A stretch of DNA of 64,000 nucleotides from IMG/VR virus record IMGVR_UViG_3300034092_002634, positions 18,653-82,652 of that record. One strand, written 5' to 3'. The DNA comes from a virus. Below the pieces are notes generated by a model. The model was not told where the DNA came from and searched no databases. It saw only the letters and a list, made by a program, of their open reading frames with translations. Position numbers and translations under genes: made by a program. Shown piece after piece: positions 1-20,878 of the stretch (position 1 is the stretch's first letter; every line of letters starts with the position of its first letter).

Positions 1-1320
1 GATTATTGAGATTATACTGGGCCATTTCATTGTAAGAGACTAGTGCTTCTTCAGGACCCATTGGCAAAGCCGAAAGCGCCGCAAGCTGCGTCGGATTTAA
101 TACCTTCGCCGCTTTAGGTTTAATAACTTCGTTAATAGCCCGCTCGCTTGCATTTACAAGACTCTGACGCAGCGCGTCACGTGCTGCTGAATCGGTCTCA
201 TCTCTCAGTCTTGCGGATACCTCATTTTTTGTAGATTCCAGAACATTAAAAGAAGCCTGGTCCGCAAACGAAACTTTTCTATATTTGTTAGCTCCTGCAC
301 GCGGATCTGCAGTTGGTTTTGGTCCGTAAGGACTTTCAGCATTACGTGTTGCACCAGCTGCACCAACTCGTTGCTCAGCCTGATTAAGCTCGGTCAAAGC
401 GTCTATAAGCTCGTGGACTTGCTGTATTTCTCTTTTAGTTCTCTCGATTGCTTCTTCACGACCCGGAGCATCTTCTCGCTCGCTCTCGATCATAAACAAT
501 CTACCGTTTAATTCGCTAAGTTTGCTCTGCGCCGCCTGACTATAGTTAACTAATGAGTCTTCTGGAGATGTTGATAAGGCGTCGACAGTATTTACAAAAC
601 CATAGCCAAGTAGCTTTGTTGCTTTCGGTTTAATAATATCTGCAATTGCTTTTTTGCTCGCACCGGTTAGTGTTTCTTTTAATCTTGCCCTGGCTTCTGG
701 ATCTTGCTCAGTTCTCAGCTGCTCGCTTATTGAATTTTTTGTAGCGTCGAGTACGGCTAATGAAGCACGATCTTCTGGAGACAACTTTCGATAACCGCTA
801 TTATTCGTAGGATATGCTGGTTTTTTTACTTCAGTAGGATCAACAATTGCTCTAGTTGAAGTTGCACTACCTACACGCTGCTCTGCTTGATTAAGTTCTG
901 TAAGCGCATTGATAAGTTCCTCAACTAACGATATTTGCTTTTGTATTCGCTGAATTTCTTCATCTCTTCCGTCAGTTCCTTCTGGAATTGCCTGTTGAGC
1001 TTCAAGTTGTGTAGTGAGGTCTTGATGTGCCTGTGCCACCGCGTCATTGTAATATGTCAACGATTCTTTAGAATCTGTTGTTTCATCCCCGTAGTAAAAA
1101 CGTTCGTTGACGTAAGGTTCCATACCTTCGCTATCAATTGCTTTTACCTTAGGCTCAATAATGGCGCGAATTGCTTGCCTGCTGACCTCATTGAGGTTAC
1201 CGCGCAACCGTTCTCGTGTTGCTGGGTCAGTTTCTGTTTGAAGTTGCCCAGCTATCTGGTTTTTTGCTGCGTCAAGTTGATTTAATATAGATCTGTCAGC
1301 AACTGACACCCGTCGATAGC
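1..1320 (-). repeat. Three ~170-aa tandem protein repeats in giant ORF (third truncated by window)
   Basis: YR[RK][VL]S.[AE]D...L...KN....L..E.D...R..L...L......AI...I.PK recurs at ~1317, ~793 and ~283; ELI[ND]ALTELNQAEQRVG recurs at ~870-920 and ~365-412. Confidence 0.8.
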
Positions 1321-4300
1321 CACCGCCACCACCGCCCGTACCTACACTAGTGACATCGCCGTTTACGTTCATACCATCTTTATTTGATATGTACACTAAC
1401 GATTTTTGCATTTTCTCTGCAGCGCCTGCACTGAAGTTGGCATCTATAGTAACGTTACCACCATGAATGTTTATCTCTACCGCACCGGCATGCAACGTGT
1501 CGATAGTAGCCGAAGCTATTGTAGTAATACCGCCGCCAGGACCACCACGCTCGCCAGAGTCCGCGTCGTCTGAGAAAGTAACTGGTGGTTCTCTTGGGGG
1601 TTCTTTTGAGCCGCCGTCCGAAGTACTTGCAGTTACCGATGGTGCAGATCCGGGAGTTTTCACTTTTGTCGGTCTTTCAGTTGCTAATGATATATCTTCA
1701 ATTGCATCGCCCACTGTTTCTTTACTTATGGCAGGACCAACTGTAACAGGCGACAAATCTGCAGTTGCAACTACATCCTCAATTGTTTTACCTTTAATGT
1801 CAGCAACACGTGCATCTTTTGCGCGAAAGTCACGAAACGACATACCTCCGCCTACTTTTTCTTCCAGCAGTCTTTTCATTCCGCCAAAATCTCCACCTAC
1901 TGCGGCATCTGCATTGGGTTCTAAGTATTCTGTATTTATTTTTTTAACAAACTCTCCTAATTCCTCAGGGTTAAGTTCTTCTATTTTTTTCCCTTTGAGA
2001 TCTCCTGCAAACATACTGTTCATTCGATCGAATAAACTAGATTTCTCAGATGCACTCATATCGTACCAGTCTTGTTCAGCAGCGACTGTTCTATCGGCGT
2101 CCCTCAATATTGTTTTATCGCCGCGTCTTGCGATACGACGTGTAAATTCCTGCATGTCTGCCAATGGTCGGTAGAAAGAATGCGCGGCCGCCACTCGACT
2201 AGTCGCTTTCTTTCGTTCTTCCGCATCCGCAATGTCTTCTAACTTAGGCGTAGCAACAAGCTGACCAACAGTAGAATCCACTGCAATTCCGTGTTTTGCT
2301 AAGTATGCTTCTGTTACTTTTGCACGTTCCTCTGGATCTGAAACTTGCGGAAATATTCTTTGCACTGCTCGCGTGTCGACTGCAGCATCGTGAGCGTCAA
2401 CTAACGGATCTCCAGTAACTGCTTCGTATGTTGCACCCAACGTATGTGATCCGGGATACATATCACGGCTCATCAACAAAGTGTCTTCTGTCTTTGCCTT
2501 TACTGCATCCGGAACGGCCATGGTACCGCCGTACACTGTTGGTAAGTCAAATTTTTGAATATTATGCCCTGCTACAGTAGTAGCACCTTCTATCTGCAGT
2601 TGTAAATTTTTACGTATTTGACCTTGAGACATTATCTGACGACCTGACATTGCGGTATCAACTAACTTGTCGATGACTCCAGAACTAACGTCATTACCGC
2701 TTGCTCTACCCTCAACTAACGGAAGTTTGCCCTCTCGTTTAAGAGCTAACGCTCTAATTAGTTTTCTCTTCTCGTCATCGGGAATTGTGGGATCCGCTGC
2801 TATTCTGTTTATTTCTTCAGCACTCGAATCTAACGGAACTGCGTACATATCGGTAACCGCCCCGTCGTTAACACCCGTAGCCGCTTGAAAGATTAGTCGA
2901 TCTTCCGGTTTTTTTGCAATATTTGTTTCTAAGTCAAAAAACAATCGCTTTGCCTCAGCAGCTGTCGAGGTCGTTGGTTCGTCCGGTTCAGGAACAACTA
3001 TACGTTCCCTTGCTCCTTTAATTGCCCCTAACAATCCCTTTGCTTCATCATATTCTGTTGTACCCGATCTAAATTTAAGAACAGATTCGATATCTTGGTC
3101 AGCCAGCATCGCCATAATAGGCTGCAAGGCCGGATCTCTAGAAAGTATGTCCATTTGCACTGGATTTGTTAAATCCGCATCTTTTAGTTTTGCCAATTGT
3201 ATTGGTTTTAAACTAGCCATTGCTTGTGATATTGCCGAAACACGGGCACTCTGCACGTCATCTTTTGCCCAATCGGGAGGAGTTAAACCGGCAACTACGT
3301 TTGCAATTTGCATCACGCCTTTGTTGTCCCCGAAATTAGTCGTCAACCGCTTCATTGCATAATTGTGTAATTTTTTTCTTGCTTCGCTTAATTGTCTTTT
3401 TTGTTCGGCTGTGAGGTCGGTTCTGCCAGCTAAAGCCCTTACCTGTGCTCGAGCATACTTTAACTGATTCTCAGTGTAAGGTTGTTCAACGTCTGCAACT
3501 ACATCAGCCGGGGCTCTTCTAGGTCTTCTCGGTGCTCTATCAGTAGAGCCTTTAATTTCAGGTATTCCCCCTTCAAAGCTTGAAATAGTTTTGTCCAATG
3601 CTACCGCTGTTTCTGCAGATCCAGCTGGAGCGCTATCTACTTCGGCTCTTGCGGAAGATGCTAAGAGCTCGTCCATTACCTCGCGCGCACTAAACGCAGG
3701 CTCTACTCCAAATTCTGTTTCATACGCTCTGACTGCTGCACGAGACGATCTGAATAAACGAGCGGCGAGTTGTAGAGGAGAAGCTGAAGATTCGGCTGCC
3801 GCAACTGCGGGAGCTGTCAAAGCAGCACGAGATGCGTCATGCTGAATTACTAAATTTTCTTGTTTTTGAATTTCATCGACAATTGTTTTAAGTTCCGGAT
3901 GAGTTTTCAAAAGTTCGTCTTTGCGATCTCCACTTGGAGTCCTATAGTATTCTTTTATTGCCGCAGATATCGGTCCCTCTGTGTTATACAACCTGCTGGC
4001 ATAGTTCTGTGCTTCTCTTGATTTTCTTTTCAATTCATCATCGATTGCTTGATCTTCTGGCGATAATGTAGCTCGAGGCATTTTGACAGCAGCGAGATCG
4101 GCATCGGACATTTTACTGATTTCGTCCATTAACTCGGCGGTTGGCTTGACTGCTTCTGCTTGATCTACGATATCTCTAACATTCAAATTAGAAACAAATC
4201 CTGATTCACCAGTGTCATCAACAGTCATTTTTGTCCGCACTAGCGGACGCAAAGAAGTTCGGTCAATTACCTGCTTATCTTCGTAACTTACCGGAATGCC

Positions 4301-7300
4301 TGTATTGTCAACAACAAAACGAATGTCGCTATCTTCCGTGTCTAAACCCTGGGCCTGTCTTTGCATTAACTCTATAACCTGTTGTGATTGTGCTACAGCT
4401 TGTTCGGCTTCTGCTATTTTTGCATCTACGTCTGCTTTTCTTTTTTGAATTTCTTCAGTAGGTACTTTGATGTCGGCGCTAACTTTTACGGTTTCATCTG
4501 CGACTCTTTTTGATTCTTCAGTAACTGCTGTAACATCCACACTTGGTGTTGAAGCTGCGGCTGCTTCTTGTTTGAGCGCTTCTGATCTTGCTTTTAAAGC
4601 TTCTAATTGCTGTTTTTGTTGTTCTAGTTGACTTTGAAGTTCTTGTGCTCTACGCTCAGTCTCGCTGTATTTTGCTTCTTCTCTAAGTGTTGGTTCTACC
4701 TGCAACGATAAAGATTCGCTACCTAGGTGTTTTGCAGTGTTGGGAATAACTGGGTCAAGAACAAGTGCAGTAGCCGCAGCATTAAACAAGTTTAAATGAA
4801 CCGGTGTGTTAGGATTGTGCTCGGCTCTGTATCTTATTGCGTCGTAACCCATGGCTACGGCTAACTCATCCGGTTTCGGTGCAGCAACAAACTCTTCGTG
4901 AAGGGCTTGAAGACGAGTCTGTACCTCTTCAGGAACATCTGTTCTTCTACTTACTGGGTAGCTTTTGACGCCGAGGTTAATGTTACTGCTTCCGCCACCA
5001 TATGGTAACATTAGCATGTCAGCTTCATTTAATATGTCAGATTGCAATCTTGCAGTGGGATCTACTTTTTCTCTGTACAACTCCTCCATAACATCTTCTA
5101 CACCGCCACGCATAGCCGAAGCTGTGTCTTTGGGCAAGGGAGTCAATCCTAGGGCTATTCGCCGTTCGTCAACACGTTGCTGAGCTTTTTGAATCATTTC
5201 TGAATCAGCATCTAAAAGAGAGGCCGTTGACAGTAAAGCGGATACATTCACACTAGATCTTATTTCCCCTTCTACGCTTTTCGATCTGTATCCGTGCGCG
5301 ACTTCTCTACTTGTATCTGGTGATTGTTCCTCATCAGTTTCACTGCCTGTTCTGGTTGACGTGTGATAAAGACCCTCGCCATAGCGGCTTCCGCCACCCA
5401 TAGCCATCGGAAACTCTGACGGAAACACAGCCAGTGGGTCTCCTTCCCTTTCAACGGCTTCGTAGGCTAGCGGAGTTTCGCCTTGTTTCGCTGCCACTTG
5501 ATCTTCGTCTTCCCCACGATAAATGAGTATAGGCTGACCGTCTTTATCGAGCAGTAGTTGATCTTTGTTTGCTAGTAGCCCCGCCAAAGTAGGTACTGTA
5601 ATAGCAGGACCAGTCATCCCTTGTGTTCTTCTAGCAGATTCAAATCCAATCGTCTCTCGCAGAGTATTTTTGTTTCCGGCTAAACCCACATCAAGAATTT
5701 CTTCAGGAAGTTTATGTAATTCTTCATTTCTGCCTACCCTCAACTCGTCAACAGACAGTACAGGTCGATCCGCAGAAGGTGCTCGATCTTCCAGAATCAT
5801 ACGAGCGATCTCGGTTGAAGCAGCATTTAGCACACTGGTAGTTACAGATTCAGATGAATCTGTAGGAGACACGGTTACTCCTAAATCTTGAAGAATTGCC
5901 TTATCTTCTTCAGCTAGCTTGTCTATTTCCTCGATTTTTTGAAGTCTTGCAGCAACATCTTCATTTTTTGCACGTATTCCTTGGTTAACTCTTCGCGCAC
6001 GCTGTATATCCCACGATGGCTGGTGCATTTCGGGAGGATTGGACTCATCCTCAATTGCAAAATCCTCAAGCATCGCCCGCTTAAGTTTTAAACGATCTCT
6101 TTTTTTACTTTCTTCTGATTTTTCCTTAGAAGCTGGATCAGACGCAAGTAAATTGGCGCGCTCTATCAGCGCTTGAGCTGCTTCAGGGTTTTCGGCTGCG
6201 TTGTTGAGTATAGCCGTAAGATCTTCCGGATTCCAAGAATCTCTATCTTTTTCGTCTTCCGGTGCCATAGATATGGCAGCACCTATAATATTTCCAAAGT
6301 CTAACCCAACGAATGGTGAATCTGTTGAAATTTCGCCATTTTCCATGTCCAGACCAAGTCTAGCAAACGCATCTAGAAGCGGCGGCATTCCGCTTTCTTG
6401 AGTGCCTTCTTTAATACCGCGATTTGCTCTTTTTTTGAGCGGTTCAAAACTCTCTATTTCTGCTTGTCTTTTTTCTTCTTCGGGTTTTAGTAAACTATCT
6501 AATTTTTCTATTTCAGAGTCTAATTGTGCTATGTATTCTTCTGAGGGCACGCTATCAAAAAGTTCTTCTACAAGTTCGTCAAAAACAGATTCTTGTTCTG
6601 CTCGGGACCCAGGTGCCTCATATGAGTATGCAAAGTTTGGCCGCTGGTATTCTTGTATAGTTACAGGGCCGGTAACAGATTGCTTCTCAATTTGTCTTTT
6701 TTTAGATCTTATTGTAACTTCTTGAAGTGTTTTTAGTTTTTCAGTACGTTGTATTTCCTGCTCAAGCGCTGCTACTTTTTCCTCCCCTGCAGCTATTTCC
6801 TGATCTACTATTGTTTGTGCATCTTCTCCGGTTATTGCTGCTTTTTTCTTTGCTTCTAGCTCAGTCAACTCAGCAGTCAATTCGATCATTTTTTGCGTTT
6901 GTTCGTTGCTAATTGGAGTTTCTTCTTGATCGTTTGTAATTTCCCCTGACGCTACCATTGCCTGCAGTGCTACTAAAGCTTCTCGACCAGCAGCCACGTC
7001 TCTTTGAGTACTCATTCTACTAGCGTCTATCTGACCAATTGCAGCGGAAAGCGGCAGTATTTGAACTCCTTGAGTTTCAAAATGAGTTGCCGCAGGTGAT
7101 ACGCTTTGAACTCTACGCATGTAAAACGCATCAGTTGTTGTTGGAGAAATTGCAACAGGCACGTCAGCTTTAGGGTCGAACACCACTCCGAGTTCTTCTT
7201 GCGCCTCTCTTTCAGCGGCTTGCCATTGTGTTTGACCAGGATCAACAGTACCCATTACCGGAATGGCTACTCCTCTCCCTTTGTACGATTTTGTAGACTG

Positions 7301-10300
7301 CCCGACAACAACCATTGGCTCGGATTGACCTGGTACAAAGAAATAAGGTACTGCTCCTGCAGAAGCTCGATTACTTGCAGAAGTATCGGGTACATTATCT
7401 GGTGTAATTGCCGAAACCTCCGGCATTACCTCAGGACCGACAGAAAGACCTAAAGTTTCGGCTACTGCAGCGTTTACAACTCTTGATGCATCACTGCCAG
7501 GAACTTCTGGAGAAATATCAATTCTACCCGTTTTTGCAAATCTTTCACTTATCTGCTCTGGATAATCTGCGGTCAGCGGTAAAGTGCTGCGTCTTGACAT
7601 GTACGTAAGCTCACCGTGTGATACATCTGGGTGAACATACGTTCGTCCTGCTACTTGACCTTGGCCCGTTACTCCTCTTTCTGCTGCTTCTCTTGCAAGT
7701 TTAGTTGCGGGAGATTCTAATGCTGCTATCTCTCCTTGTACTCTTGCTATTTCTTCGTCTATTGTTTCTGGTGTTGAAATTACTGATACTGGAGTTTCTG
7801 GTGTTGCAGTTTCCGATGCGGTAGTCAATATTCCCCGTTTTACAAGTTCTCCCTCAATTGCCTGAATATTAGCTTCTGTAACTACTTTAGCTTTTCTTGC
7901 ACTTATTGGCCGAGTTTGCTCAGCTGCTTCATACTCTTTTTGAGCTCGATGCGCCTCGTCTCTTGCTTTGAAAACTTTTTGCATTTCCGGTGTTTGTTGC
8001 AATCTTTGTAACGTGGCTTTATTTTCTTCAGCTTCCTCGTAACTTAGGGAATTTCTTTTTAAGCGTGCCTGTAATGCTGCATCGTATTCATCGACAATAT
8101 CTTTATGTGTTAGTTCAATCAGATTTAAAAGCGATTTTTTTCGCTCAAATTTATCTTTAGCTCTTTCTATATCTTCTTGACGTTCTTTTTCTAATCTTTC
8201 ATCTATGTCTGGCTCGTCAGTCATCGCTTGCTTTATCTGACTTAGTTTACGTTTTTCTTGTGCTAAAGACGCCTCTAAATGCTCGGTAGATTGAGTTTCG
8301 CTAAATGATTCTTTAACAAGTCCGCCAGTCTTTACTACAGGACCTATTTGCTCGCTTCCCGTAATACCTATAAAACTTCGGTCGTCTTGCAAAGTACCCA
8401 ACTCCCCCTCGTCAAGAAGCAGTCTTTCACCTAAGCCAACAAAACCTTCGGTATCGACCTCTGGATCTAGTTTACTAAATTGTCCGCTATGACTGTATGC
8501 ATCGGACGCTAAGAAAACACGTGCCGGAGTTTTTGATTCAACTGCCAAAACCCTGCCTTCATGCATAATTCCGCTTTCAGTAGCCCCAATTGCCGCAGTC
8601 GAAGGTCCTGTATATCCACCTTTATCTTCGCCCAGCGTTTCTTTAGAAATACCTAGGTCAGCTGATTCTATTAAAGCGTCTCCGGCAGTAACAAATTCAT
8701 GCTTGTAGCCTTCTGAACTTCTTGTTCTGCGGTAAGCCGCGAACGTAGCACCAGCAATTTGTCCGGAATCTTTTTTATCTTGCCTACTATGTAAATATTT
8801 TATAAGTTCGCCAACAGTTGGGCTTGTTCCGGCTTCTTCAAATGGTTTTAAAAATTCTATAAATTGGTTTCTTGATTCATCCGTTTTCTGCAAACCTGCG
8901 CGGTTTAACATAAGTCTAGCAGTCGAATCTTTGTCATCTGCTGCAAAAAGTTGTAAAAGGTCGTTTACTTCGGTTTGTGCTGATCTATTATTGACTCTTG
9001 CTAGAATTGATTCGGTTGTAAACGGCTCGTCTGCGGGTAAATTAGCAGCTTCCTGTACCAGCATTTCTGCTAAATGTGTAGAAAACCAAGCTTTACTGAC
9101 TCCATCAGCCACTGCTGCAGTAAGTGTACCTGTTTCCGCATTTTGACGGATGGCTAGTCTATCTTGATTTCCTTTTGCTTCTTGTTCTTCCTTAGAAGCT
9201 AAAAACGCGACAAAGGCCGGAGATTCTATAAGTTGATCTTCTCCAGTAGTCGAGTGTACAAAAACTGACTCATCCTCGGCTGTAACATCTTCGGTAATAT
9301 TTTTTCTTTCTGTAAGATTTATTCTAGGGATTTTTAAAGGTACGGCGTTTTCGTCTATTGCTATTTCTTCATCTATTGTATCAGCATAAGATAAAACATC
9401 AATCGCTTTTTCTGAACCCGCACCTTCTGACCTCATGTCACTAATGTCTTTTTTAACTGCTGCAATTTCCCCGTCAACGTCTGATTCTTTAATTACAGCT
9501 TCAACTGCCTTAGCGGGACCATCTCCAGGTAATTCTGCTTCTAACGCTGCTCGTTCTTCTCTTAGTTTTTGCAGATTATCTAGCTTAGCTTTATGAGCCA
9601 TCAAGTTAGTAAGGCGTTGCTCTTGAGTACCAGTTCCGTATCCTTGAGATTCGTCAATCTGGTATCGGCCAGTTTGATTAAAAATTTCCTGCATGATGCC
9701 TAAATCGTAAATTGCACCACTTCTCGTCGCGGGGTCAATATTGTCCATTTGGGCAATTGTGGAAAGATATTCAAATTTTTGAGAAATAGGATCTGGTTCC
9801 GATGCTTTGTAAGTAGCAAGTTTTTGCTTAAGGATCTTTAGTTGATTGTTTTTTTGATCTATAACCGGAAGTATTTTATCTGCTTCGTGAGGTGCTAAAG
9901 CTATTCTGCTTCGCATTTCTTCTATTTCTGCAGTTAATTGCTCAAACTCACGCATTGCTTCTTGAATTTTTATTTCATTTTCTACGTTGCGGCCATACGC
10001 ACCACCGACAACTTGACCAGACTCTTGGTTTGCAACTTCTGCACCCTTGCCCAACAAGCTGTAAGACGCTCCTTGATCAGGAACGGCTGCAGCTACATCC
10101 GGACCCGTACCAACTAGTCGGTCCTGTCTTCCTAAAACTCGGGCTGCAAACTGAGGCATACCTTCGCCTGACTGCACGTTGTCAGTTAATAAATTGCTGA
10201 ACAACGAAAGCGATCGGTTAACCGCTGCAGATACATCGGTTGTGTTTATGTTAGCAGGATCAAACATCGCTAAAGCGCGAAATTCATCTTGAAACCCTGC

Positions 10301-13264
10301 TGGAGCAACCCCGGCTGTTTCGTAATCCGAAATCATTTGAGTGACTTCATCAACTCCCATGCCGGCAGCGCCACCTCGTCGCCTAATTGAAGCAACTATT
10401 TGATTTTTTATTGCTGGGGCTGCCAAAGTCAACACGCGTTTAATTAATTCTTTGGGATCCATCGACGTGTCTAACTCAGCAAGTTGCTTAAGTGATTCAG
10501 AATCTATCGCTTGCAGATGCGGAAGTTTAGCTTGCACCTCTTGAAATAGACTCTGCTCTTCTGCGTCAAGGTCGGTTGAAGTTGCTAACTTAGCATACTC
10601 AATTAAGGGAATACCGCCAGAGCCGTAACTACCCATTTCTGCGGATGCTTGAACAATTGATTGCAAACCTTTCTTTGTTCTGTAGCCACCACCAAGCGAT
10701 TGATCAAGCTCTTCTCCCTCAAGCATTTTACCGCTGGCGTCTGTCGCACGTGCTGCATGATACATACCAGTAATGACATTACCCGCAGAAGCAGACTGTC
10801 GAGATAAACCAAAAGCATCACTTATAATTTCGATAAACTCTCGATTTTGCTGACCTGACGATACTGTGCCGGCTGAGTCTAACTGCTGCGTAATTGGCGT
10901 AGTTTGATAGCGGTCTAGTGCCATAGACTGACCGGACGTCATATACTCTACTAACGACTGTACGGGACTAGTTCCATAAGAGGGCCTTGCTGGAATTGTG
11001 AGTCCCGATTGTGCAAGTCCCGCAGAAACTTCCTGAGCCTTGCTCATAATCGGCGCTACCGCATCAGGTGTTGCAGGAATGGATCCAATAGACTGTTTAA
11101 ATAAAACAGTTAGTGCTTGATCTCGCGTTAACGCCGGAGCTGTGTTACTGCCCGGAAGTGCTATCTGTCCACGTCTTTGCGCTAACTTTTTTTCCTCTTC
11201 TGGATTTTCAGATTCAGCCAGAATCTCATCCAGTAACTGTATCTCTTTGCCAAGCTTTGCCGACTCAGTTCTGTAGCGATTAGCCATTGCTGGAGCCGCA
11301 GTTACCATACTGAGATCCGCCTGATCTCTCTGATAAACAAGTCTTTCGCGCAAACGTTTTGCGTGAGTTACTGCCAACGTAACTTCCTGTTCTTGTTCCG
11401 GAGCAACTGTCTGCTCTACAAAACGACTAGCGGACTGATCTGAAACAGCCCCTGTCGAAGTATATTGATTTATTAAATCGCCCGCAAACAAAGCAACAAA
11501 CTTTCGTACTGGATCTCCAGTAACTATCGCCCCTCTAGGTCCCCGAGTTCCAGCCATTCTACCAAAAGCTGTTGTGTGTTCTGACAAAATTGAACTAGAT
11601 TGAATCGCCTCCACAACCATTTTTGCAAGAGATTCAGGCAAGTCTACAGTCTGCCCTGCGATCGAAGCGGGCCTTATGTTTCCTTCTTCTATGTCCTGCA
11701 TAACGGTTGAAAAGAGCGCGTCAACCGCCTTTTGTACTTCGGCGTCCATGCCCCCACCGAAAACGGCGCTTGAGCTTCCGGCTACTACTTGGGAACCGGC
11801 ACGAACGTCTACGCCTTGCGCTTCCGAACTGTAACGACGCGTAGGATTTAGTGAAGCTTTAAGTGATTGAATATACTTTGAAATGTTAGCACCAATTCTG
11901 GTTACCTGTCCCGGAAATACTCGGCTACTCCGTAAAGCGTCTACTACTTGAGGACTACCGTCTTCTCCGGCATTTTGTATGCTAAAGTCAGTTCCCAAAA
12001 ATAACGCAGAAGAATCTACTTCTTCTGCAGTACCTGGATCGACTGTTCGGCTTCTTGGTATTACCGGTCGAGTCGTTGCTTCTGCAACTACCGTTTTCAA
12101 TCTTTTCAGCAACTGATCAAAAGCCGCCGGACGTAAAAACTCAAAACCTTCAGTACTTAAAGCTGTTTCTCCTACTCTTCCTGCTGCACCATTCTCAAGT
12201 CTAGTTACCAACATTTCAACGGCTCTGGTTAGAGCGGACTCAATTTCAGAACTGCTAGCTACTGGAGACATTGCCGCATTAAGTATAGGGTCGTCTAATT
12301 TTACTGCCCGCAATGCTTCAATAATTGGGGCAATAATTGATTCTTGTGCCGTTTGTCGCTGTGTGTTGCTTACTGTGCCAGAAGATTGATTTATCTTTTT
12401 GAATGCTTGCTTAATTTGCTGATTTATTCTATTTTTGTCCGCAGGAACAGTTGCCTCTTCTCGGTCTTTTACAAGTTTTTGAAGTTCGGCGACAATCGGG
12501 GCAATTTCCGGACGAGTTTCGGCTGGATTTTCGTGACGCAGTTGAGTATTCACATATTTAACAATTGCCGAAACGGAGGCGTTTTCGGGAGGCCTTGCTC
12601 CGCCCGATTGAGCTACGCTGACTCGTCCTCCTCGATTCGGTGTAACAGCATAACTTGTAGCGGAACGAGTATCCGGTGTAGTAAGTGCCCATTTCATGTC
12701 TGCGTACTCAGGATCCGCAACTGGTGAACTTGATTGAGAGCTTCTTACCGAAGTTCTCATCTTAGCTTGTGTTCTTCTAACCATATCCCTAAGAGTATCT
12801 TCTCGTTCATCTATTTGCTGATCTAGTTGTGCGAGCAAAAGTTCAAAGTTAATGCTTCTGTCTGTATGTCTTTTTACAACCGCTGGCCTGTTCTCACCAC
12901 GAATCTCCTGTACTCTTGCTCTTCTCTCTTCGTCTAGTTTGTCTTGTACTTCCTTACGCCTACGTGCTGCATCCGAAACTACAGGTGTTGAACGAACACC
13001 GCCCGAGACAGGACTTTCGTCAGCTGATGATTTTACTGAAAGTGAGCTTACAACTTTAATCTCATTTTCTAACTCGTTGATAACTTTGCTAGCTATTTTA
13101 GCATCTGCTGTAATTTCTTTTAAATATCCGGCTAAACCACCTTCGTGTGCGTTTGCTTTGCTTTGTATAACCTTCTCAAAAACAATAGCGGCTTCCTCAC
13201 TAGTACTTTTTAAAAGCGTTAGTGTTTCAATTAACTCTACTAATTGTTGTATTTTAACTGACAT
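1..13264 (-). CDS. Giant (>=4421 aa, runs off window) tape-measure-position polyvalent virion protein
   Basis: ATG at 13264 with AGGTGG RBS. Hand translation (MSVKIQQLVELIETL...) found no stop down to position 2. Missing from the ORF track because it has no stop in the window. Follows tail tube and tail-assembly chaperones; Ala/Glu-rich helical segments with embedded enzyme motifs. Confidence 0.88.
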   Translation of the reverse strand, partial: MSVKIQQLVELIETLTLLKSTSEEAAIVFEKVIQSKANAHEGGLAGYLKEITADAKIASKVINELENEIKVVSSLSVKSSADESPVSGGVRSTPVVSDAARRRKEVQDKLDEERRARVQEIRGENRPAVVKRHTDRSINFELLLAQLDQQIDEREDTLRDMVRRTQAKMRTSVRSSQSSSPVADPEYADMKWALTTPDTRSATSYAVTPNRGGRVSVAQSGGARPPENASVSAIVKYVNTQLRHENPAETRPEIAPIVAELQKLVKDREEATVPADKNRINQQIKQAFKKINQSSGTVSNTQRQTAQESIIAPIIEALRAVKLDDPILNAAMSPVASSSEIESALTRAVEMLVTRLENGAAGRVGETALSTEGFEFLRPAAFDQLLKRLKTVVAEATTRPVIPRSRTVDPGTAEEVDSSALFLGTDFSIQNAGEDGSPQVVDALRSSRVFPGQVTRIGANISKYIQSLKASLNPTRRYSSEAQGVDVRAGSQVVAGSSSAVFGGGMDAEVQKAVDALFSTVMQDIEEGNIRPASIAGQTVDLPESLAKMVVEAIQSSSILSEHTTAFGRMAGTRGPRGAIVTGDPVRKFVALFAGDLINQYTSTGAVSDQSASRFVEQTVAPEQEQEVTLAVTHAKRLRERLVYQRDQADLSMVTAAPAMANRYRTESAKLGKEIQLLDEILAESENPEEEKKLAQRRGQIALPGSNTAPALTRDQALTVLFKQSIGSIPATPDAVAPIMSKAQEVSAGLAQSGLTIPARPSYGTSPVQSLVEYMTSGQSMALDRYQTTPITQQLDSAGTVSSGQQNREFIEIISDAFGLSRQSASAGNVITGMYHAARATDASGKMLEGEELDQSLGGGYRTKKGLQSIVQASAEMGSYGSGGIPLIEYAKLATSTDLDAEEQSLFQEVQAKLPHLQAIDSESLKQLAELDTSMDPKELIKRVLTLAAPAIKNQIVASIRRRGGAAGMGVDEVTQMISDYETAGVAPAGFQDEFRALAMFDPANINTTDVSAAVNRSLSLFSNLLTDNVQSGEGMPQFAARVLGRQDRLVGTGPDVAAAVPDQGASYSLLGKGAEVANQESGQVVGGAYGRNVENEIKIQEAMREFEQLTAEIEEMRSRIALAPHEADKILPVIDQKNNQLKILKQKLATYKASEPDPISQKFEYLSTIAQMDNIDPATRSGAIYDLGIMQEIFNQTGRYQIDESQGYGTGTQEQRLTNLMAHKAKLDNLQKLREERAALEAELPGDGPAKAVEAVIKESDVDGEIAAVKKDISDMRSEGAGSEKAIDVLSYADTIDEEIAIDENAVPLKIPRINLTERKNITEDVTAEDESVFVHSTTGEDQLIESPAFVAFLASKEEQEAKGNQDRLAIRQNAETGTLTAAVADGVSKAWFSTHLAEMLVQEAANLPADEPFTTESILARVNNRSAQTEVNDLLQLFAADDKDSTARLMLNRAGLQKTDESRNQFIEFLKPFEEAGTSPTVGELIKYLHSRQDKKDSGQIAGATFAAYRRTRSSEGYKHEFVTAGDALIESADLGISKETLGEDKGGYTGPSTAAIGATESGIMHEGRVLAVESKTPARVFLASDAYSHSGQFSKLDPEVDTEGFVGLGERLLLDEGELGTLQDDRSFIGITGSEQIGPVVKTGGLVKESFSETQSTEHLEASLAQEKRKLSQIKQAMTDEPDIDERLEKERQEDIERAKDKFERKKSLLNLIELTHKDIVDEYDAALQARLKRNSLSYEEAEENKATLQRLQQTPEMQKVFKARDEAHRAQKEYEAAEQTRPISARKAKVVTEANIQAIEGELVKRGILTTASETATPETPVSVISTPETIDEEIARVQGEIAALESPATKLAREAAERGVTGQGQVAGRTYVHPDVSHGELTYMSRRSTLPLTADYPEQISERFAKTGRIDISPEVPGSDASRVVNAAVAETLGLSVGPEVMPEVSAITPDNVPDTSASNRASAGAVPYFFVPGQSEPMVVVGQSTKSYKGRGVAIPVMGTVDPGQTQWQAAEREAQEELGVVFDPKADVPVAISPTTTDAFYMRRVQSVSPAATHFETQGVQILPLSAAIGQIDASRMSTQRDVAAGREALVALQAMVASGEITNDQEETPISNEQTQKMIELTAELTELEAKKKAAITGEDAQTIVDQEIAAGEEKVAALEQEIQRTEKLKTLQEVTIRSKKRQIEKQSVTGPVTIQEYQRPNFAYSYEAPGSRAEQESVFDELVEELFDSVPSEEYIAQLDSEIEKLDSLLKPEEEKRQAEIESFEPLKKRANRGIKEGTQESGMPPLLDAFARLGLDMENGEISTDSPFVGLDFGNIIGAAISMAPEDEKDRDSWNPEDLTAILNNAAENPEAAQALIERANLLASDPASKEKSEESKKRDRLKLKRAMLEDFAIEDESNPPEMHQPSWDIQRARRVNQGIRAKNEDVAARLQKIEEIDKLAEEDKAILQDLGVTVSPTDSSESVTTSVLNAASTEIARMILEDRAPSADRPVLSVDELRVGRNEELHKLPEEILDVGLAGNKNTLRETIGFESARRTQGMTGPAITVPTLAGLLANKDQLLLDKDGQPILIYRGEDEDQVAAKQGETPLAYEAVEREGDPLAVFPSEFPMAMGGGSRYGEGLYHTSTRTGSETDEEQSPDTSREVAHGYRSKSVEGEIRSSVNVSALLSTASLLDADSEMIQKAQQRVDERRIALGLTPLPKDTASAMRGGVEDVMEELYREKVDPTARLQSDILNEADMLMLPYGGGSSNINLGVKSYPVSRRTDVPEEVQTRLQALHEEFVAAPKPDELAVAMGYDAIRYRAEHNPNTPVHLNLFNAAATALVLDPVIPNTAKHLGSESLSLQVEPTLREEAKYSETERRAQELQSQLEQQKQQLEALKARSEALKQEAAAASTPSVDVTAVTEESKRVADETVKVSADIKVPTEEIQKRKADVDAKIAEAEQAVAQSQQVIELMQRQAQGLDTEDSDIRFVVDNTGIPVSYEDKQVIDRTSLRPLVRTKMTVDDTGESGFVSNLNVRDIVDQAEAVKPTAELMDEISKMSDADLAAVKMPRATLSPEDQAIDDELKRKSREAQNYASRLYNTEGPISAAIKEYYRTPSGDRKDELLKTHPELKTIVDEIQKQENLVIQHDASRAALTAPAVAAAESSASPLQLAARLFRSSRAAVRAYETEFGVEPAFSAREVMDELLASSARAEVDSAPAGSAETAVALDKTISSFEGGIPEIKGSTDRAPRRPRRAPADVVADVEQPYTENQLKYARAQVRALAGRTDLTAEQKRQLSEARKKLHNYAMKRLTTNFGDNKGVMQIANVVAGLTPPDWAKDDVQSARVSAISQAMASLKPIQLAKLKDADLTNPVQMDILSRDPALQPIMAMLADQDIESVLKFRSGTTEYDEAKGLLGAIKGARERIVVPEPDEPTTSTAAEAKRLFFDLETNIAKKPEDRLIFQAATGVNDGAVTDMYAVPLDSSAEEINRIAADPTIPDDEKRKLIRALALKREGKLPLVEGRASGNDVSSGVIDKLVDTAMSGRQIMSQGQIRKNLQLQIEGATTVAGHNIQKFDLPTVYGGTMAVPDAVKAKTEDTLLMSRDMYPGSHTLGATYEAVTGDPLVDAHDAAVDTRAVQRIFPQVSDPEERAKVTEAYLAKHGIAVDSTVGQLVATPKLEDIADAEERKKATSRVAAAHSFYRPLADMQEFTRRIARRGDKTILRDADRTVAAEQDWYDMSASEKSSLFDRMNSMFAGDLKGKKIEELNPEELGEFVKKINTEYLEPNADAAVGGDFGGMKRLLEEKVGGGMSFRDFRAKDARVADIKGKTIEDVVATADLSPVTVGPAISKETVGDAIEDISLATERPTKVKTPGSAPSVTASTSDGGSKEPPREPPVTFSDDADSGERGGPGGGITTIASATIDTLHAGAVEINIHGGNVTIDANFSAGAAEKMQKSLVYISNKDGMNVNGDVTSVGTGGGGGGYRRVSVADRSILNQLDAAKNQIAGQLQTETDPATRERLRGNLNEVSRQAIRAIIEPKVKAIDSEGMEPYVNERFYYGDETTDSKESLTYYNDAVAQAHQDLTTQLEAQQAIPEGTDGRDEEIQRIQKQISLVEELINALTELNQAEQRVGSATSTRAIVDPTEVKKPAYPTNNSGYRKLSPEDRASLAVLDATKNSISEQLRTEQDPEARARLKETLTGASKKAIADIIKPKATKLLGYGFVNTVDALSTSPEDSLVNYSQAAQSKLSELNGRLFMIESEREDAPGREEAIERTKREIQQVHELIDALTELNQAEQRVGAAGATRNAESPYGPKPTADPRAGANKYRKVSFADQASFNVLESTKNEVSARLRDETDSAARDALRQSLVNASERAINEVIKPKAAKVLNPTQLAALSALPMGPEEALVSYNEMAQYNLNN
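2340..2950 (-). other. DEDDh (DnaQ-like) 3'-5' exonuclease domain within giant ORF
   Basis: ExoI LFFDLET, ExoII AGHNIQKFD, EDTL, ExoIII AHDAAVD, all in frame. Confidence 0.85.
4760..5560 (-). other. ADP-ribosyltransferase-like (ART-PolyVal/MuF-type) domain within giant ORF
   Basis: DKDGQPILIYRG ... GSRYGEGLYHTS ... VAHGY ... AMGYDAIRY ... HLNLFN; the terminal catalytic Glu is not evident. Confidence 0.6.
7000..7370 (-). other. Nudix hydrolase domain within giant ORF
   Basis: Nudix box GTVDPGQTQWQAAEREAQEELGV at 7184-7252 (GX5[E>Q]X7REUXEEXGU), preceded by the SAGAVPY strand. Confidence 0.8.
8360..9200 (-). other. PP2C/PPM-type Ser/Thr phosphatase domain within giant ORF
   Basis: In-frame motifs in the correct order: GNQD, AVADGVS, GATFAA, TAGDA, FLASDA, QDDRSFIGI. 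Confidence 0.8.
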
Positions 13265-13274
13265 TTAGCACCAC

Positions 13275-13649
13275 CTACATAAATAATTTGAACGTCTCCG
13301 CCTCCTCCTTCAAGTCTTTTTCTTCCTGTTTCTTTATTTGTTGAAGTTTGCGGCGGACGCTAGCTTCTAAAGATTTTTGTTTAATGGCAATAATAGCAGC
13401 CATGTCACCGTAACTTAGCTTACCAAGTTTCTTAGCGTTGAGTGCTGTGTACTGCGTCGAATTGAGAAAGTGATCAATCCACATTGCGAGCTCGTCTTTT
13501 GTTGACGTGGCTGTCGCAAGCAGTTGACCCGCCGCGTTATTCTTGGACGGGCTCCTGTACAGTGGCGTCCTTTTCAAGTGTCTCGAGGTATTTTTCGAAA
13601 GCATCTTTTGATATTTTTCCAAGAGTCCAAATATTTTCCGCGAGTTCAC
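13275..13649 (-). CDS. Tail assembly chaperone, second (T-like) segment
   Basis: Overlaps the 3' end of the chaperone gene and abuts the giant ORF; alternative independent ATG at 13484. Confidence 0.55.
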   Translation of the reverse strand: MNSRKIFGLLEKYQKMLSKNTSRHLKRTPLYRSPSKNNAAGQLLATATSTKDELAMWIDHFLNSTQYTALNAKKLGKLSYGDMAAIIAIKQKSLEASVRRKLQQIKKQEEKDLKEEAETFKLFM

Positions 13650-16534: not shown

Positions 16535-17488
16535 TTAAGAAGTAATCTTGATTACACCGATGTTTTGTGGCATGTCGACAACCAAACCGTAAGACATCCA
16601 AGCGTGAAGCGTGTAGTCTGCTGGTTGAATGTTCATGTCGACACTTTCTTGATATTCAGTACCGCCGTACAACAAGACCTCTCCTGCGTTGTTACCAACG
16701 AGAATAATCTTGTCTTCTGGAATGAGTGCTGCCCGTGGATTTGGGAGGTCGTTCTTGAACACCTGTGGAAGTTCAATCAACGGTACGCCCATGTAGTACG
16801 AAACACGATTTGTGTTGAGGTATTCGAGCAACTTCTCGTTAACCGGGTACGCAATTGTGTTCGATGTGCCACTGTAAATGTACTCGCGGAAAGCAGCAAA
16901 CTTATAAATAGGAAGCAATGCTTTACGAGTCCCAATGATAGCTTTGACACCGCCTGCGGTGTACATGACATTCTCCATCAACGTATCCAATGCCGTGTAG
17001 GTCAAGGCAGCGGTTTCGACGTAGTGTGAAGGCGTGTTGGCTGTGGTCCATACCGAGGACAGCAAGTTGAACACACGGTTCACCAAATTGTCGGTAAGGT
17101 CGAACGCAAGCTGCTGACGCATCATTTCGACCGTGATCATGTTGCCCTGCTGCACGTTCCAAAGACTCTCACGCACACCGCCGATCAAGCGATCGAACAC
17201 ATATGAATGATAATCCTGGACAGTGGTTGGCTGACTGACTAAATGACTGGTGCCTGGTACCATCGACTGAACCGAGTACTTACCACGACGAAGACGTCGG
17301 ATAATCGGGTCGCCGATGTTAGCTTGGCGGGTGGGCATAAATGTATTGAAAAGATCCAGTGTCAAGTGATTTGGCTCAACCATCTGTACAATCAATTCTG
17401 CGAATGCGGACTTACCTGAAAGAGTAGTCCCGGCCGTTTTTGCCGTCTCAGCCAGGGCTTTCTGAAATTTCTCTGTTTCGTTCATCAT
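16535..17488 (-). CDS. Major capsid protein (HK97 fold)
   Basis: 317 aa, follows protease/decoration genes; YYMGVPLIELP and C-terminal YGLVV..PQNIGVI pattern. Confidence 0.8.
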   Translation of the reverse strand: MMNETEKFQKALAETAKTAGTTLSGKSAFAELIVQMVEPNHLTLDLFNTFMPTRQANIGDPIIRRLRRGKYSVQSMVPGTSHLVSQPTTVQDYHSYVFDRLIGGVRESLWNVQQGNMITVEMMRQQLAFDLTDNLVNRVFNLLSSVWTTANTPSHYVETAALTYTALDTLMENVMYTAGGVKAIIGTRKALLPIYKFAAFREYIYSGTSNTIAYPVNEKLLEYLNTNRVSYYMGVPLIELPQVFKNDLPNPRAALIPEDKIILVGNNAGEVLLYGGTEYQESVDMNIQPADYTLHAWMSYGLVVDMPQNIGVIKITS

Positions 17489-17498
17489 CTACTCCTAA

Positions 17499-18029
17499 TT
17501 AATGCATAATAATGTACAACATCTCAGTGTCAGGCTGATAACGCTCGACAGTGGCGATGGTGTGACTATTAGTGGTGGTGTAAGTAAGCAAGCCGGATGC
17601 GCCGACGGCAACGCGAGCGCCTGGGACCTTGATATCGGCCGAATTGACAAAACAACCCGAAGTGACGCCGATCTTACCGCGATGCATTGCAACGAGTTCG
17701 CCGGACACAATGAGTGGTTCTTTCCACATGGAACGCTTTACCAAGTATTGCTTTTTGTGGAAGACTGGATCTCCGTAGAGACCACCGTCATTCAAATTGT
17801 AGTTTTTCGTTCCTGGAACAGTGTACCAATCCTCATAAGTTGGGGACGGAAAATTGTCGGGTGGGAAGAATGCGATGAAAACGCCGTGCTGAGTCTCCGC
17901 TGCTGCGTACGAAACAGTAGGCAAATCTTCACGCACACCAGAAGCGCCAACAACAACGGCGCGCCCTTCAACGATTGTTGAAGATGCAACACCCTGCCGG
18001 CTGTGTAACGTGGTTACAATAACTGCCAT
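17499..18029 (-). CDS. Head decoration/cement protein
   Basis: Small beta-rich protein between protease and capsid. Confidence 0.55.
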   Translation of the reverse strand: MAVIVTTLHSRQGVASSTIVEGRAVVVGASGVREDLPTVSYAAAETQHGVFIAFFPPDNFPSPTYEDWYTVPGTKNYNLNDGGLYGDPVFHKKQYLVKRSMWKEPLIVSGELVAMHRGKIGVTSGCFVNSADIKVPGARVAVGASGLLTYTTTNSHTIATVERYQPDTEMLYIIMH

Positions 18030-18103
18030 TTTTAGTTACCTCATTTAAAATTTAGACTAATTCCGTAGTCTTCGGTCTATTCGTCTTACAAAGAAGAAAA
18101 AGG

Positions 18104-19672
18104 CTAGGCCTTGTTACCCTTCTTTAGAAAGTCTGCCAAAGCTTTGGCACTGACTGATTCAGTTCCAGAGCTCTGGGGTTCTGGAATTGAAATAGGTTCC
18201 TTAACGCTTGAATTTGATTTCACAGGAGCTGCTTTACGAAGATCCCCGATAATCTTACTCAACACGTCGTCAGTCAAAGACAAGTAGAATTCCAGTTTCT
18301 GCTCAATCTCACTCTGACTAAACACCGATGAAAGCTCGGCAATTACTTCGTTTTTCCGGGCTTCGGCTTTGGCATGCTGCTCGGCTTCTTCGAAGGCTTG
18401 GATTTTGGTCCGTAAGTCATTTGCTTCCTTCTCCTTCTCAGCCAAGGAGGCTGTAAGTTCTTCAATCTGTTTTTTCAGTTCTTCCATTTCTTCCTTCTCT
18501 TCTGCTACTGAAAGTAGCGGAGTTCTATTTCCATAGGCGGGATTGTCTACGATACAGGTGCCTGCAAAGACTACGTCTTTTAGCCACCTAATACCATCAA
18601 TCTCCTCAGCGGAGGAGTAGTACACTTCCCAGGAGGTTCCAATAAACTCACTATCATCTGCGCGCGATTTAAGCAGTTCGTATACTGCTGGGTACTGATC
18701 CTTCCAAATGAAAGCCCGTCCCATAATTACGTCACGCCCTTGATACGTGTCTACAAAAGCCTCTGTGATGGCTCCTACAGGATGTGCTCCTGTATGACCA
18801 CCGTAGCCATTTTCCGATACCGAAATCTTTATCGGAGTAAGCTTAGAAGTGCGAATTACGTTGTCAATTTCAGATCTGCTAATACCCTCACTGTTTGAGT
18901 TGGGTTCAAAGTCTGTCAGGACAACTTCGATTTCTTTTATGAATGGGTGGTTAATATCCGAGCTTCGCGCAAGGCGTAAACCACCTTTCACAGATGCCGA
19001 ACTTTTTTTGTCAGCTGCGTTCATTTGTTTTACAAGACGAGCAAACCACCCTCTGCCAGATGCTCCACCCCAAAGCAACCAGGAAACCCAAGCTGGGGAA
19101 TCCTTAGGTGCGTTCGCGAACCGAGCATTTCGACCGTAAAACCTGTTACCCATGCGGGCTCTTTCAGGACTTACAGAGTCACCGGACACGTACTTCCGTG
19201 CCCACGCAACTGTTGCAGGCTCTAAACCATTCCCGCTCAACCCTTTCTCGTGTAGAGCTAGGCCACGTTTTGCGGCTGAGCGTACACCAGCAGGAGGAGA
19301 AAAGTTAATATTAGCATAGCGGCCAGCAGAGTAGGATTCACTCGGATCTTCCTCTTCTTTATTATTTGAGTCGGGAACCGGTATAAAATCGGGAATGTTT
19401 AAATCTTCGTTTTCAATAACCCAGAACTTACAGATTGCGTCAGGTTCGATAACTCCTTCTACAACCGCACAGCTATTGCTGTCTTTTGCAAAGAAGGCAC
19501 AATTGAAACACACAAGGCCCTCGGCTTTAAATGGGTTACTTTCTGCCGGAGTATAATGCGATCCCTCGCTATCTGTACCCCATCCAAATTTTCCGTATTC
19601 GTCAGTTATTTGAATTAGCTCCTCAACAAGATCCTCTTGTCGCGGAGAAAGGTATTCTGCTGTTTCTTCCAT
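18104..19672 (-). CDS. Prohead protease/scaffold with N-terminal HiPIP-like Cys domain
   Basis: HPVG...GTSWEV...GTCIVDNPAY protease motifs; C-terminal coiled-coil scaffold; N-terminal CFNC-x8-C-x10-CKFW. Confidence 0.7.
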   Translation of the reverse strand: MEETAEYLSPRQEDLVEELIQITDEYGKFGWGTDSEGSHYTPAESNPFKAEGLVCFNCAFFAKDSNSCAVVEGVIEPDAICKFWVIENEDLNIPDFIPVPDSNNKEEEDPSESYSAGRYANINFSPPAGVRSAAKRGLALHEKGLSGNGLEPATVAWARKYVSGDSVSPERARMGNRFYGRNARFANAPKDSPAWVSWLLWGGASGRGWFARLVKQMNAADKKSSASVKGGLRLARSSDINHPFIKEIEVVLTDFEPNSNSEGISRSEIDNVIRTSKLTPIKISVSENGYGGHTGAHPVGAITEAFVDTYQGRDVIMGRAFIWKDQYPAVYELLKSRADDSEFIGTSWEVYYSSAEEIDGIRWLKDVVFAGTCIVDNPAYGNRTPLLSVAEEKEEMEELKKQIEELTASLAEKEKEANDLRTKIQAFEEAEQHAKAEARKNEVIAELSSVFSQSEIEQKLEFYLSLTDDVLSKIIGDLRKAAPVKSNSSVKEPISIPEPQSSGTESVSAKALADFLKKGNKA

Positions 19673-20437
19673 TTACGTACCTCTCACTAAGTGAACTTCA
19701 AATGTTCCTGCAGCAGTTTCTGAAGGACTGAAAGAAATAATAATCCCGTTTACCGCACTCGCTAACAGCGGAATGCTGGTAATAATTCCTGTCGCTGGTA
19801 CAGATTCGGGAATAAAGCCGTAACGCACATTAGGGCTTAAAGACTTACTAAGAACACTCATATCGGCTGTGAGCGAGCCCAAATCGGCAAAAACGGTAAC
19901 TACACCCGCGGATGCTGACTTAATAGAGAACGATAGCTTTCTCCAGCCAGAACGTATCATCGGCACATAAATAAATCGACCGTTCATATACGAAGTGTCA
20001 AAGAATGTTCCGTAAGGGTCAATAACCTCTAACGATTCAGGTGAAAAAGAGTCAAGACATACAAAAATGTCGTCGTACCCATCTGCAATTGTCGAGATCA
20101 GTTCGTTAACTCTGCCGTCTCCGGCAGTTTTCAACCCACCCTTAGCAGTTACTCTAAGAACAGAAATCTCGTTGTCAACTAACTCAGCATTTGAATTGTT
20201 GAGCGTCTCGCTATAAAAAGTACCCGCACTCGGGAATAGAGTGTCGTTAGCGTTAAACGCTTGTGTGAATGAACCAGTTAAGTTCATTGATACGGGAATA
20301 GGATATTCCTCACTCCCTAAAGAAACACCGCTGGGACTAGTTATTACAAACTGCTGATAATGCGTTGTTGCTTCGTCGTTCAGTATTTCAACTGTACCCA
20401 ATGTAGTCGGTGTTGTTGACGGAATATTAATAGGCAT
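19673..20437 (-). CDS. Hypothetical (possibly structural) protein
   Basis: ORF with GGAGGG RBS before MPINIP. Confidence 0.55.
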   Translation of the reverse strand: MPINIPSTTPTTLGTVEILNDEATTHYQQFVITSPSGVSLGSEEYPIPVSMNLTGSFTQAFNANDTLFPSAGTFYSETLNNSNAELVDNEISVLRVTAKGGLKTAGDGRVNELISTIADGYDDIFVCLDSFSPESLEVIDPYGTFFDTSYMNGRFIYVPMIRSGWRKLSFSIKSASAGVVTVFADLGSLTADMSVLSKSLSPNVRYGFIPESVPATGIITSIPLLASAVNGIIISFSPSETAAGTFEVHLVRGT

Positions 20438-20470
20438 GTAACCCTCCAAAAGTATCCTCTAACAGTATAC

Positions 20471-20878
20471 TTATTTTTCTGTCAGTTTTATTTTGTTAAT
20501 GATCATTCGGACGCTCTCTCTTGAGACTGTTAACCCCGTCATATTACAAATTTTAGTCAGTTTCCGCACAGATAAATTTTTCTCGTAAATGCTTTTAATA
20601 AAAGATTCAATTATGTCTGTAGTTTTGGGTCTGCCTCTTGGTCTGGAAGATCCCCAAAATCTTTCAGGCTCTTTCGATAAATAATCAACTTCATAATTTG
20701 TTGATTCAATTTTTGTTATACGCCGTTGACGGCGCTCCATTGCAACTAATTCTAAAAACCATTCTGACGAAGAGTAAGGCCCATATAAAGAGCGGCAACT
20801 CAAACAGAGAAAATCTCCACTCTTTCTCCGATCATCACAGAATAAACAACGAACATACCTCATAAAATCACCTGACAA
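20471..20878 (-). CDS. Putative transcription regulator (Zn finger, AT-hook, HTH-like)
   Basis: CxxC...CxxC, RPRGRPK, C-terminal LSVRKL...VSRESVR helix-turn-helix-like segment. Confidence 0.5.
   Translation of the reverse strand: MSGDFMRYVRCLFCDDRRKSGDFLCLSCRSLYGPYSSSEWFLELVAMERRQRRITKIESTNYEVDYLSKEPERFWGSSRPRGRPKTTDIIESFIKSIYEKNLSVRKLTKICNMTGLTVSRESVRMIINKIKLTEK

Follow-up and report, generated by a model that had tools for sequence, protein, structure and literature searches.

We analysed a 64,000-nucleotide stretch of viral DNA (the window), which comprises bases 18653-82652 of the 82,652-bp IMG/VR record IMGVR_UViG_3300034092_002634; CheckV rates the record as complete, and it is the 82.6-kb genome of an uncultured lake-water phage. 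The minus strand of the window carries the greater part of a gene for a protein of 6,477 amino acids (aa), which we consider rather likely to be the tape measure of a freshwater siphovirus-type phage, built out into an enzyme carrier. Three predicted enzyme domains within it, a PP2C phosphatase, a Nudix hydrolase and a DEDDh exonuclease, are supported, as is a thermonuclease (SNase) as a fifth domain, and an ADP-ribosyltransferase (ART) of the ART-PolyVal type is probable. Because of the analogy with gp96 of Thermus phage P23-45 and with the polyvalent proteins of phages, we infer that the tail probably carries these enzymes ready-made into the host.

The minus-strand frame starting at window position 13264 is open up to the left edge of the window, over 4,421 aa, and continues in the full record (G000:C1, to which L002 is equal) to a stop at 12483, with zero in-frame stops in 6,477 aa. 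An earlier note on this DNA had claimed a single open frame of at least 4,421 aa, and the check for in-frame stops was clean. With 19,434 bp the gene occupies 23.5% of the genome, which implies strong selection for it. In favour of an assembly chimera, or of separate genes mistakenly read as one open reading frame (ORF), it can be said that the record is derived from a metagenome only and that some databases list shorter gene calls for relatives. Against it, the identical 6,477-aa protein was found on five contigs from several archives, contigs of three lake-water runs not flagged as source cover 13.4 kb at ≥99% with no indels, one possible source run carries this 13.4-kb stretch as a single contig, six loci (L003, L011, L012, L014, L017 and L026) carry homologous ORFs of 3,991-6,357 aa at this slot, and the adjacent genes terminate at ordinary stops. 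We conclude that the ORF is not an assembly artefact, and consider the chimera extremely improbable. The central 4.7 kb of the gene is present in lake-water and freshwater runs from 2016-2024, and there was no RNA run among the sequencing runs carrying the sequence. One contig of run X9 apparently skips 2563-10719; it was not trusted, as it has merely 21 bases on one side.

The tape-measure assignment is based on position and not on a family profile. On the minus strand the capsid gene is followed by five small genes (196, 132, 210, 142 and 145 aa), an XkdN-like chaperone gene with an overlapping +1 ORF, the giant gene and the tail genes. Downstream of the giant gene lie genes of 138, 580, 843, 802 and 704 aa and then a tail-fibre assembly chaperone (PF16778, E 2.8e-16); the 704-aa gene next to it has PHROG matches that are all unannotated, and no sheath-sized gene is present. 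The gene order of the slot is repeated in L003 and in 13 IMG/VR loci on contigs of 18-80 kb, four of which measure 68-80 kb. In these loci the chaperone is 79% identical at an unchanged position even in distant relatives; identity is 75% for the 145-aa gene, which keeps its place in L014, and 51-61% for the 580-aa gene. The open frame between these conserved flanks measures 3,991, 4,476 or 4,666 aa where complete and >4,900 aa where the locus end cuts it, so that the ORFs of the clade in this slot span 3,991-6,477 aa. Such a conserved position, after the chaperone pair and before the tail genes, is strong evidence for a tape-measure role. The earlier note, too, had placed the protein in the tape-measure slot, with a separate tape-measure gene further downstream as the alternative; the genes that follow are conserved tail genes and the tail fibre with its chaperone, and none of them is a separate tape measure. 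It had also located the protein directly after tail tube and chaperone genes, of which the chaperone is supported and the tube is assigned by position only. The PhageMin_Tail domain that it proposed to look for in the adjoining part was not found, a targeted search of the genome with PF10145 giving no match. Traits typical of tape measures are present nonetheless, namely tandem repeats of variable copy number and a hydrophobic Gly/Ala segment towards the C-terminus. The features are collected in Table 1.

Table 1. Predicted features of the giant protein and its neighbourhood; positions refer to the window unless L002 is named
Feature	Position	Strand	Basis
Giant ORF, N-terminal 4,421 aa of 6,477	2..13264	-	remainder L002:12483-18653 (-), equal to G000:C1
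Conserved N-terminal module, aa 1-1290	9395..13264	-	conservation
Predicted PP2C/PPM phosphatase domain, aa ~1360-1645	8330..9187	-	PF13672, AF2 fold match, motifs
Predicted Nudix hydrolase domain, aa ~1960-2110	6935..7387	-	PF00293
Probable ART-PolyVal-like domain, aa ~2505-2860	4685..5752	-	ESM-Atlas neighbours and conserved residues
Predicted DEDDh (DnaQ/TREX-like) 3'-5' exonuclease domain, aa ~3435-3650	2315..2962	-	motifs, profile
Gly-rich segment preceding the repeats, aa ~3860-3982	1319..1687	-	sequence
Tandem ~170-aa repeats, 3 copies, aa 3983-4497, the third crossing the window edge	2..1318	-	sequence
Predicted SNase (thermonuclease) domain, aa ~5205-5335	L002:15912-16304, outside the window	-	PF00565
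Candidate frameshift extension, +1 ORF (G/GT-like) overlapping the chaperone 3' end	13275..13649	-	
XkdN-like tail assembly chaperone, 133 aa	13537..13938	-	PF08890, E 0.0018; phrog_389, E 2.6e-4
Candidate major tail (tube) protein, 145 aa	14019..14456	-	position only
HK97-fold major capsid protein, 317 aa	16535..17488	-	NF042927, E 3.5e-10

The phosphatase domain, which the earlier note had put at about aa 1365-1630, is supported by fold as well as by motifs. PF13672 scores 20.2 bits over aa 1360-1591, under its gathering threshold of 24, and a PDB profile search with the segment returned nothing meaningful. An AlphaFold2 (AF2) model from four homologous segments, with a predicted local distance difference test (pLDDT) of 63-95 in the core, matches PPM phosphatases (VIA Z 11.3, 170 aa, root-mean-square deviation 3.6 Å; 50 of the 50 top rows are PPM), and Foldseek places PPM phosphatases in its top rows too, at weak E-values of ≥2e-3. 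The motifs NQD (1366), DG (1387), GD (1528), SD (1587) and DD (1627) are invariant in the four homologues. The Nudix box, expected near aa 2005, occupies aa 2005-2027 and reads G2005-x5-Q-x7-REAQEELGV; compared with the consensus GX5EX7REUXEEXGU, Q replaces the first E and A replaces U, while REAQEE is intact. PF00293 matches aa 1981-2034 at 25.1 bits, above its gathering threshold of 21.1 and covering profile positions 15-62 of 134 only, and the L012 orthologue gives the same match.

In the region for which a DEDDh exonuclease had been suggested (about aa 3445-3640), the three motifs follow each other in the order of the family: FFDLET at 3442 (Exo I), GHNIQKFD at 3566 (Exo II) and HDAAVD at 3625 (Exo III). 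With three short homologues included, the profile of the family matches the PDB entries 9mrd, 9mrc and 9l8b with E-values of 1.2e-10 to 1e-9; the match spans all three motifs, and TREX1 stands lower in the list. A Pfam RNase_T search of the genome found no match, probably because of an insertion of ~110 aa between Exo I and Exo II. For the SNase domain, PF00565 scores 17.3 bits in the giant protein, under its threshold of 21, and 31.2 and 40.3 bits at the homologous position in L014 and L026, respectively; the residues VDADT and RTGVIDAQE are intact.

The ART-like assignment is probable and draws its support from language-model neighbours. In the ESM-Atlas the window copy has ART-PolyVal neighbours with a score of 0.89, and the L012 orthologue (40% identical) reaches 0.93, with 28 of its 30 matches being ART-PolyVal. 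An AF2 model from two alignment rows had a pLDDT of 41.6 and was unusable. Conserved among five homologues are PIxxxR-x-D-x-DQ, YGxGxY and GYDxxR[YF]. The site of ART-PolyVal and Tox-ART-HYD2 enzymes consists of H on strand 1, Y on strand 2 and D on strand 5 (PMC5512222), and YGxGxY together with GYDxxR would fit the Y and D of this site. Of the earlier claim of an ART-like domain at about aa 2580-2830, the likeness to ART-PolyVal therefore stands as probable and a profile match was not obtained.

Outside the enzyme domains, which are spaced by charged linkers in the variable zone (the linkers, too, had been anticipated), the protein falls into several segments. The N-terminal module (aa 1-1290) is 94% identical in L003, 47-50% in L011 and L012 and ~25% in distant relatives, and it has no match to any PDB chain. 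Among relatives the ~170-aa repeats number three, one or none. In two independent lake runs, X7 and X9, contigs leave the window sequence at 1336 and 1913 in both; these breaks fall at the Gly-rich segment and the repeat start, and co-occurring strains probably differ there. The C-terminal core of ~2,000 aa, with the SNase domain and a membrane-type hydrophobic Gly/Ala-rich stretch that follows it (aa 5389-5426), is conserved clade-wide. A stretch of ~100 residues (NAYGVD...AAFDPAQGMEGASIAIKEFLSGNVSSLSRRFEINRSALSKIN...) at L002:15831-17306 (-), aa 4871-5362, is the most conserved of the family; all relatives keep it near-invariant, and no described family matches it. The 6,477 aa contain no cysteine, and neither does any relative (L014-L026 and P0004-P0009, 3,991-6,357 aa); a chain of 6,477 aa with ordinary residue frequencies should have tens of them. 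The absence of cysteine fits a protein that has to cross a narrow channel and the periplasm in an unfolded state. Neither HExxH nor HxxEH occurs in the 6,477 aa, and no Pfam peptidase family matches.

The enzyme content varies between relatives, and this variation is concentrated in one zone. The closer giants share aa 1-1290 and aa 2900-6477, and aa 1290-2900 form a variable cassette zone. L012 carries all four of PP2C, Nudix, ART-like and DEDDh domains, and P0007 and P0008 carry Nudix, ART and DEDDh; in L003, PP2C is present and Nudix and ART are absent; in L011, PP2C is placed elsewhere and accompanied by a partial second copy. This partial PP2C-like segment (aa 1706-1777 of the 6,357-aa ORF) lies upstream of the full PP2C and is 35% identical to aa 1368-1442. 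Distant relatives have in common a portion of the N-terminal module, sometimes DEDDh, and the core. The ratio of non-synonymous to synonymous substitution rates (dN/dS) lies between 0.07 and 0.44 over all segments (DEDDh 0.12, SNase 0.09, Nudix 0.14, PP2C 0.30), which indicates that every segment is under purifying selection. In the comparison with L003 the synonymous rate (dS) takes values between 0.09 and 1.04 in different parts of the gene (aa 4000-5190 0.09, N-terminus 0.14, PP2C 0.66, C-terminus 1.04), and this mosaic points to recent recombination inside the gene.

The scans for relatives were narrow in reach. A viral-contig scan with the alignment of aa 3100-3860 returned L003 and L004 only, the core alignment 13 further loci, and a metagenome scan L011 and L012 only. 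Megablast and tblastn searches of 50,697 isolated phage genomes gave no match for the gene, the core, the ART segment or the PP2C segment, and the terminase had no match among isolated phage genomes either. An exhaustive comparison of aa 2550-3660 with 1.84 billion representatives found nine proteins, all of the own family or short DEDDh proteins, and a word-based search found no short homologues of the PP2C-Nudix segment. The GTDB genomes hold no relative, and so offer no host or prophage clue. The 'core-only' relatives of 1,700-2,700 aa were considered as an ancestral short tape measure and rejected, being fragments or partial gene calls; P0014, for example, corresponds at 99.8% identity to the final 2,327 aa of a frame of 4,476 aa.

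How might such a protein act? The giant protein would be assembled into the tail together with the chaperone pair and, at infection, be expelled through the tail tube with its C-terminus leading. The membrane segment would contribute to a channel, and the N-terminal enzymes would trail it, just ahead of the DNA, so as to act in the host before any phage gene expression. The phosphatase could be aimed at kinase-based defence or signalling, the Nudix hydrolase and the exonuclease at nucleotide-derived signals or nucleic acids, and the ART at host proteins. Presence in the virion, the ruler function, ejection and these targets are inferred from the analogies given above rather than observed. A bolder version, which we hold tentatively and with less than even confidence, extends to the 70-83-kb freshwater siphovirus clade as a whole: its tape measure would serve as an injection cartridge, in which a cysteine-free chain reaching 6,477 aa in length is threaded unfolded and refolds in the cytoplasm, where the enzymes (phosphatase, Nudix, ART and exonuclease) would disarm kinase-, NAD- and nucleotide-signal defences before phage expression, with the enzymes of each relative matching the defences of its hosts.

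Several observations weigh against a tape measure that doubles as an enzyme carrier. Neither half of the giant protein is matched by the tape-measure family models in Pfam, PHROGs and NCBIfam, such as PhageMin_Tail, TMP_2/3 and the TP901 and lambda types. The 145-aa tube gene has no assignment beyond its position (no family match and no PDB profile match), the chaperone matches are under curated thresholds, and the slip site proposed below for its extension has candidate status. The ART-like segment has no Pfam match (PF18760 included) and no PDB profile match, and its strand-1 candidate is a conserved R where the family has H. A processing peptidase was not seen, unlike in most polyvalent proteins. 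There are also physical difficulties. Tape measures account for ~1.5 Å of tail length per residue, so that a tail measured out by all 6,477 aa would reach about 1 µm, and the tails of relatives would differ by hundreds of nm despite near-identical tail genes. Folded domains of 150-300 aa, moreover, are too large for the ~4-nm lumen of the tube.

Could only a part of the chain be the ruler? The chief rival explanation assigns this function to the C-terminal ~2,000-2,500 aa, that is, to the repeats and the core, with the N-terminal ~4,000 aa cleaved off or located in the neck or capsid as an internal ejection protein of its own; the gene would be a polyvalent protein fused to a tape measure. The core is indeed conserved over the widest range of relatives, the repeats immediately precede it, ORF lengths span 3,991-6,477 aa while the adjacent tail genes hardly change, and work on P23-45 likewise leaves open how the polymerase part is packaged. 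On the other side, cleavage finds no peptidase motif or domain, there is no conserved internal start or stop, the seemingly independent 'core-only' proteins are fragments or partial calls (P0014), and the N-terminal module is conserved across the clade too. We regard a C-terminal ruler as unlikely. Still less probable, in our view, is that the embedded domains are not delivered effectors at all but act outside the cytoplasm (for example, a nuclease against extracellular DNA), serve in assembly, or are inactive spacer folds. In favour of this view, SNase enzymes as a rule depend on Ca and work outside the cytoplasm, Q stands in the Nudix box at the place of the first E, the ART-like domain is without the H of its family, and PP2C and DEDDh are under the Pfam thresholds. 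Yet homologues keep the metal-binding and catalytic motifs of PP2C, DEDDh and SNase, as well as the REAxEE core of Nudix, intact and unchanged, dN/dS is 0.09-0.30 in the enzyme segments, and the substrates of phosphatase, Nudix and ART enzymes are cytoplasmic. We retain the enzyme-carrying tape measure as the favoured explanation.

The closest precedent is gp96 of P23-45: in this tape measure of 5,002 aa the N-terminus bears a virion RNA polymerase, which is active and is proposed to enter with the tape measure (PMC10770324). In P23-45, as in P74-26, G20c and TSP4, a giant protein likewise sits in the tape-measure slot of a siphovirus, an enzyme acting in the cytoplasm is N-terminal and a membrane-type segment and ruler lie nearer the C-terminus, and in both cases the enzymes are proposed to be delivered together with the tape measure as infection begins. 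The P23-45 genome is roughly 80 kb in size. No sequence similarity to gp96 was detected, and it differs further in having one polymerase where several unrelated enzymes are found here, and a metallopeptidase where our protein has SNase; in the present family the enzyme content varies between relatives. A P23-45-type polymerase in the N-terminus, which would have two barrels and a conserved DxDxD metal motif, was considered and rejected, as there is no DxDxD in the protein and none is conserved among 10 relatives. The statement of the earlier note that no tape measure with this combination was known is fair for the exact set of domains, whereas the principle has its precedent in gp96 (PMC10770324).

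Polyvalent proteins, as surveyed by Iyer et al. in 2017, are multi-enzyme virion proteins injected with the DNA (PMC5512222). They share with the giant protein at least two disparate enzyme domains per polypeptide among the virion genes (here PP2C, Nudix, DEDDh and SNase), a domain content that differs among related elements, a predicted delivery with the DNA and, probably, an ART of the polyvalent type. The survey makes no mention of tape measures or PP2C, and of Nudix only as a neighbour (PMC5512222). Most of the proteins that it covers are linked to MuF, portal or N4-polymerase modules, and they usually, though not obligatorily, carry a zincin-like processing peptidase, which was not found here. 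Actinobacterial contractile injection systems of the Sle1 type (PMC13277306, PMC11126660) resemble our case in a tape-measure-like scaffold with exchangeable ejected domains; they differ in that these are short cargo proteins of bacterial phage-tail-like particles, and not the ruler of an infectious phage.

Among isolated phages only the group of Bacillus phage Basilisk (Sejongvirinae) has a detectably similar capsid protein, the gene in capsid position (gp36) being 23-25% identical and annotated as 'hypothetical protein'. Its ~82-kb genome has the same order: the capsid gene and small genes are followed by a chaperone pair, a long tape measure, a gene of ~120 aa and large tail proteins; gp45-gp47 of Basilisk serve as the comparison here. 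The Basilisk tape measure has 2,185 aa, one third of the length, with no enzyme domain annotated, and beyond the capsid protein detectable similarity extends to none of the structural proteins, not even to the tape measure. Tape measures with embedded cell-wall hydrolase domains, which act on the peptidoglycan of the envelope, are known from T5 (pb2) and mycobacteriophage TM4. They have in common with the giant protein an enzyme inside a tape measure and a hydrophobic segment near the C-terminus. By contrast, no muralytic domain came to light in the giant protein, and for four of its five domains the substrates are of cytoplasmic type.

The chaperone gene has a candidate frameshift extension. 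An overlapping ORF extends 88 codons past the end of this gene in the +1 frame, rather than in the customary -1 frame; because the -1 frame closes within ~14 codons, only a +1 shift could yield a fusion of the two. L003, L014, L017 and L026 retain the chaperone pair, the +1 overlap and the run CTTGGAAAAAT, and the extension protein is 47-49% identical in the latter three. The overlap lies at window 13537-13649 (-), and the run is invariant in five phages although adjacent third positions vary. Re-pairing of lysyl-tRNA one base forward on CTTGGAAAAAT could give such a shift, and the slip site GGAAAAAT in the chaperone gene is a candidate for it.

Terminase and portal (phrog_38, phrog_2739) adjoin ribonucleotide reductase at window 24584-28611 on the plus strand, and the capsid and tail genes are on the minus strand (16535-20878), which leaves the head module split into divergent parts. 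A 522-aa gene (18104-19672, minus strand) upstream of the capsid gene has a coiled-coil C-terminal part and only unannotated PHROG matches; it may code for a scaffold, a protease or a minor head protein. The structural operon ends, directly after the tail-fibre chaperone, with a GT4-type glycosyltransferase (L002:1038-2255, minus strand; phrog_2170, E 3e-41).

If the enzymes are delivered, the tape measure would be a general vehicle for pre-made effectors, beyond its roles as ruler and channel former. The single published case, the polymerase of P23-45, would be extended to counter-defence chemistry, and tape measures would be linked to the polyvalent strategy. Delivery would also raise the physical question of how a chain of ~700 kDa with five globular domains fits into the tail tube and passes through it. 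The absence of cysteine and the cassette differences between close relatives are testable handles on this proposal.

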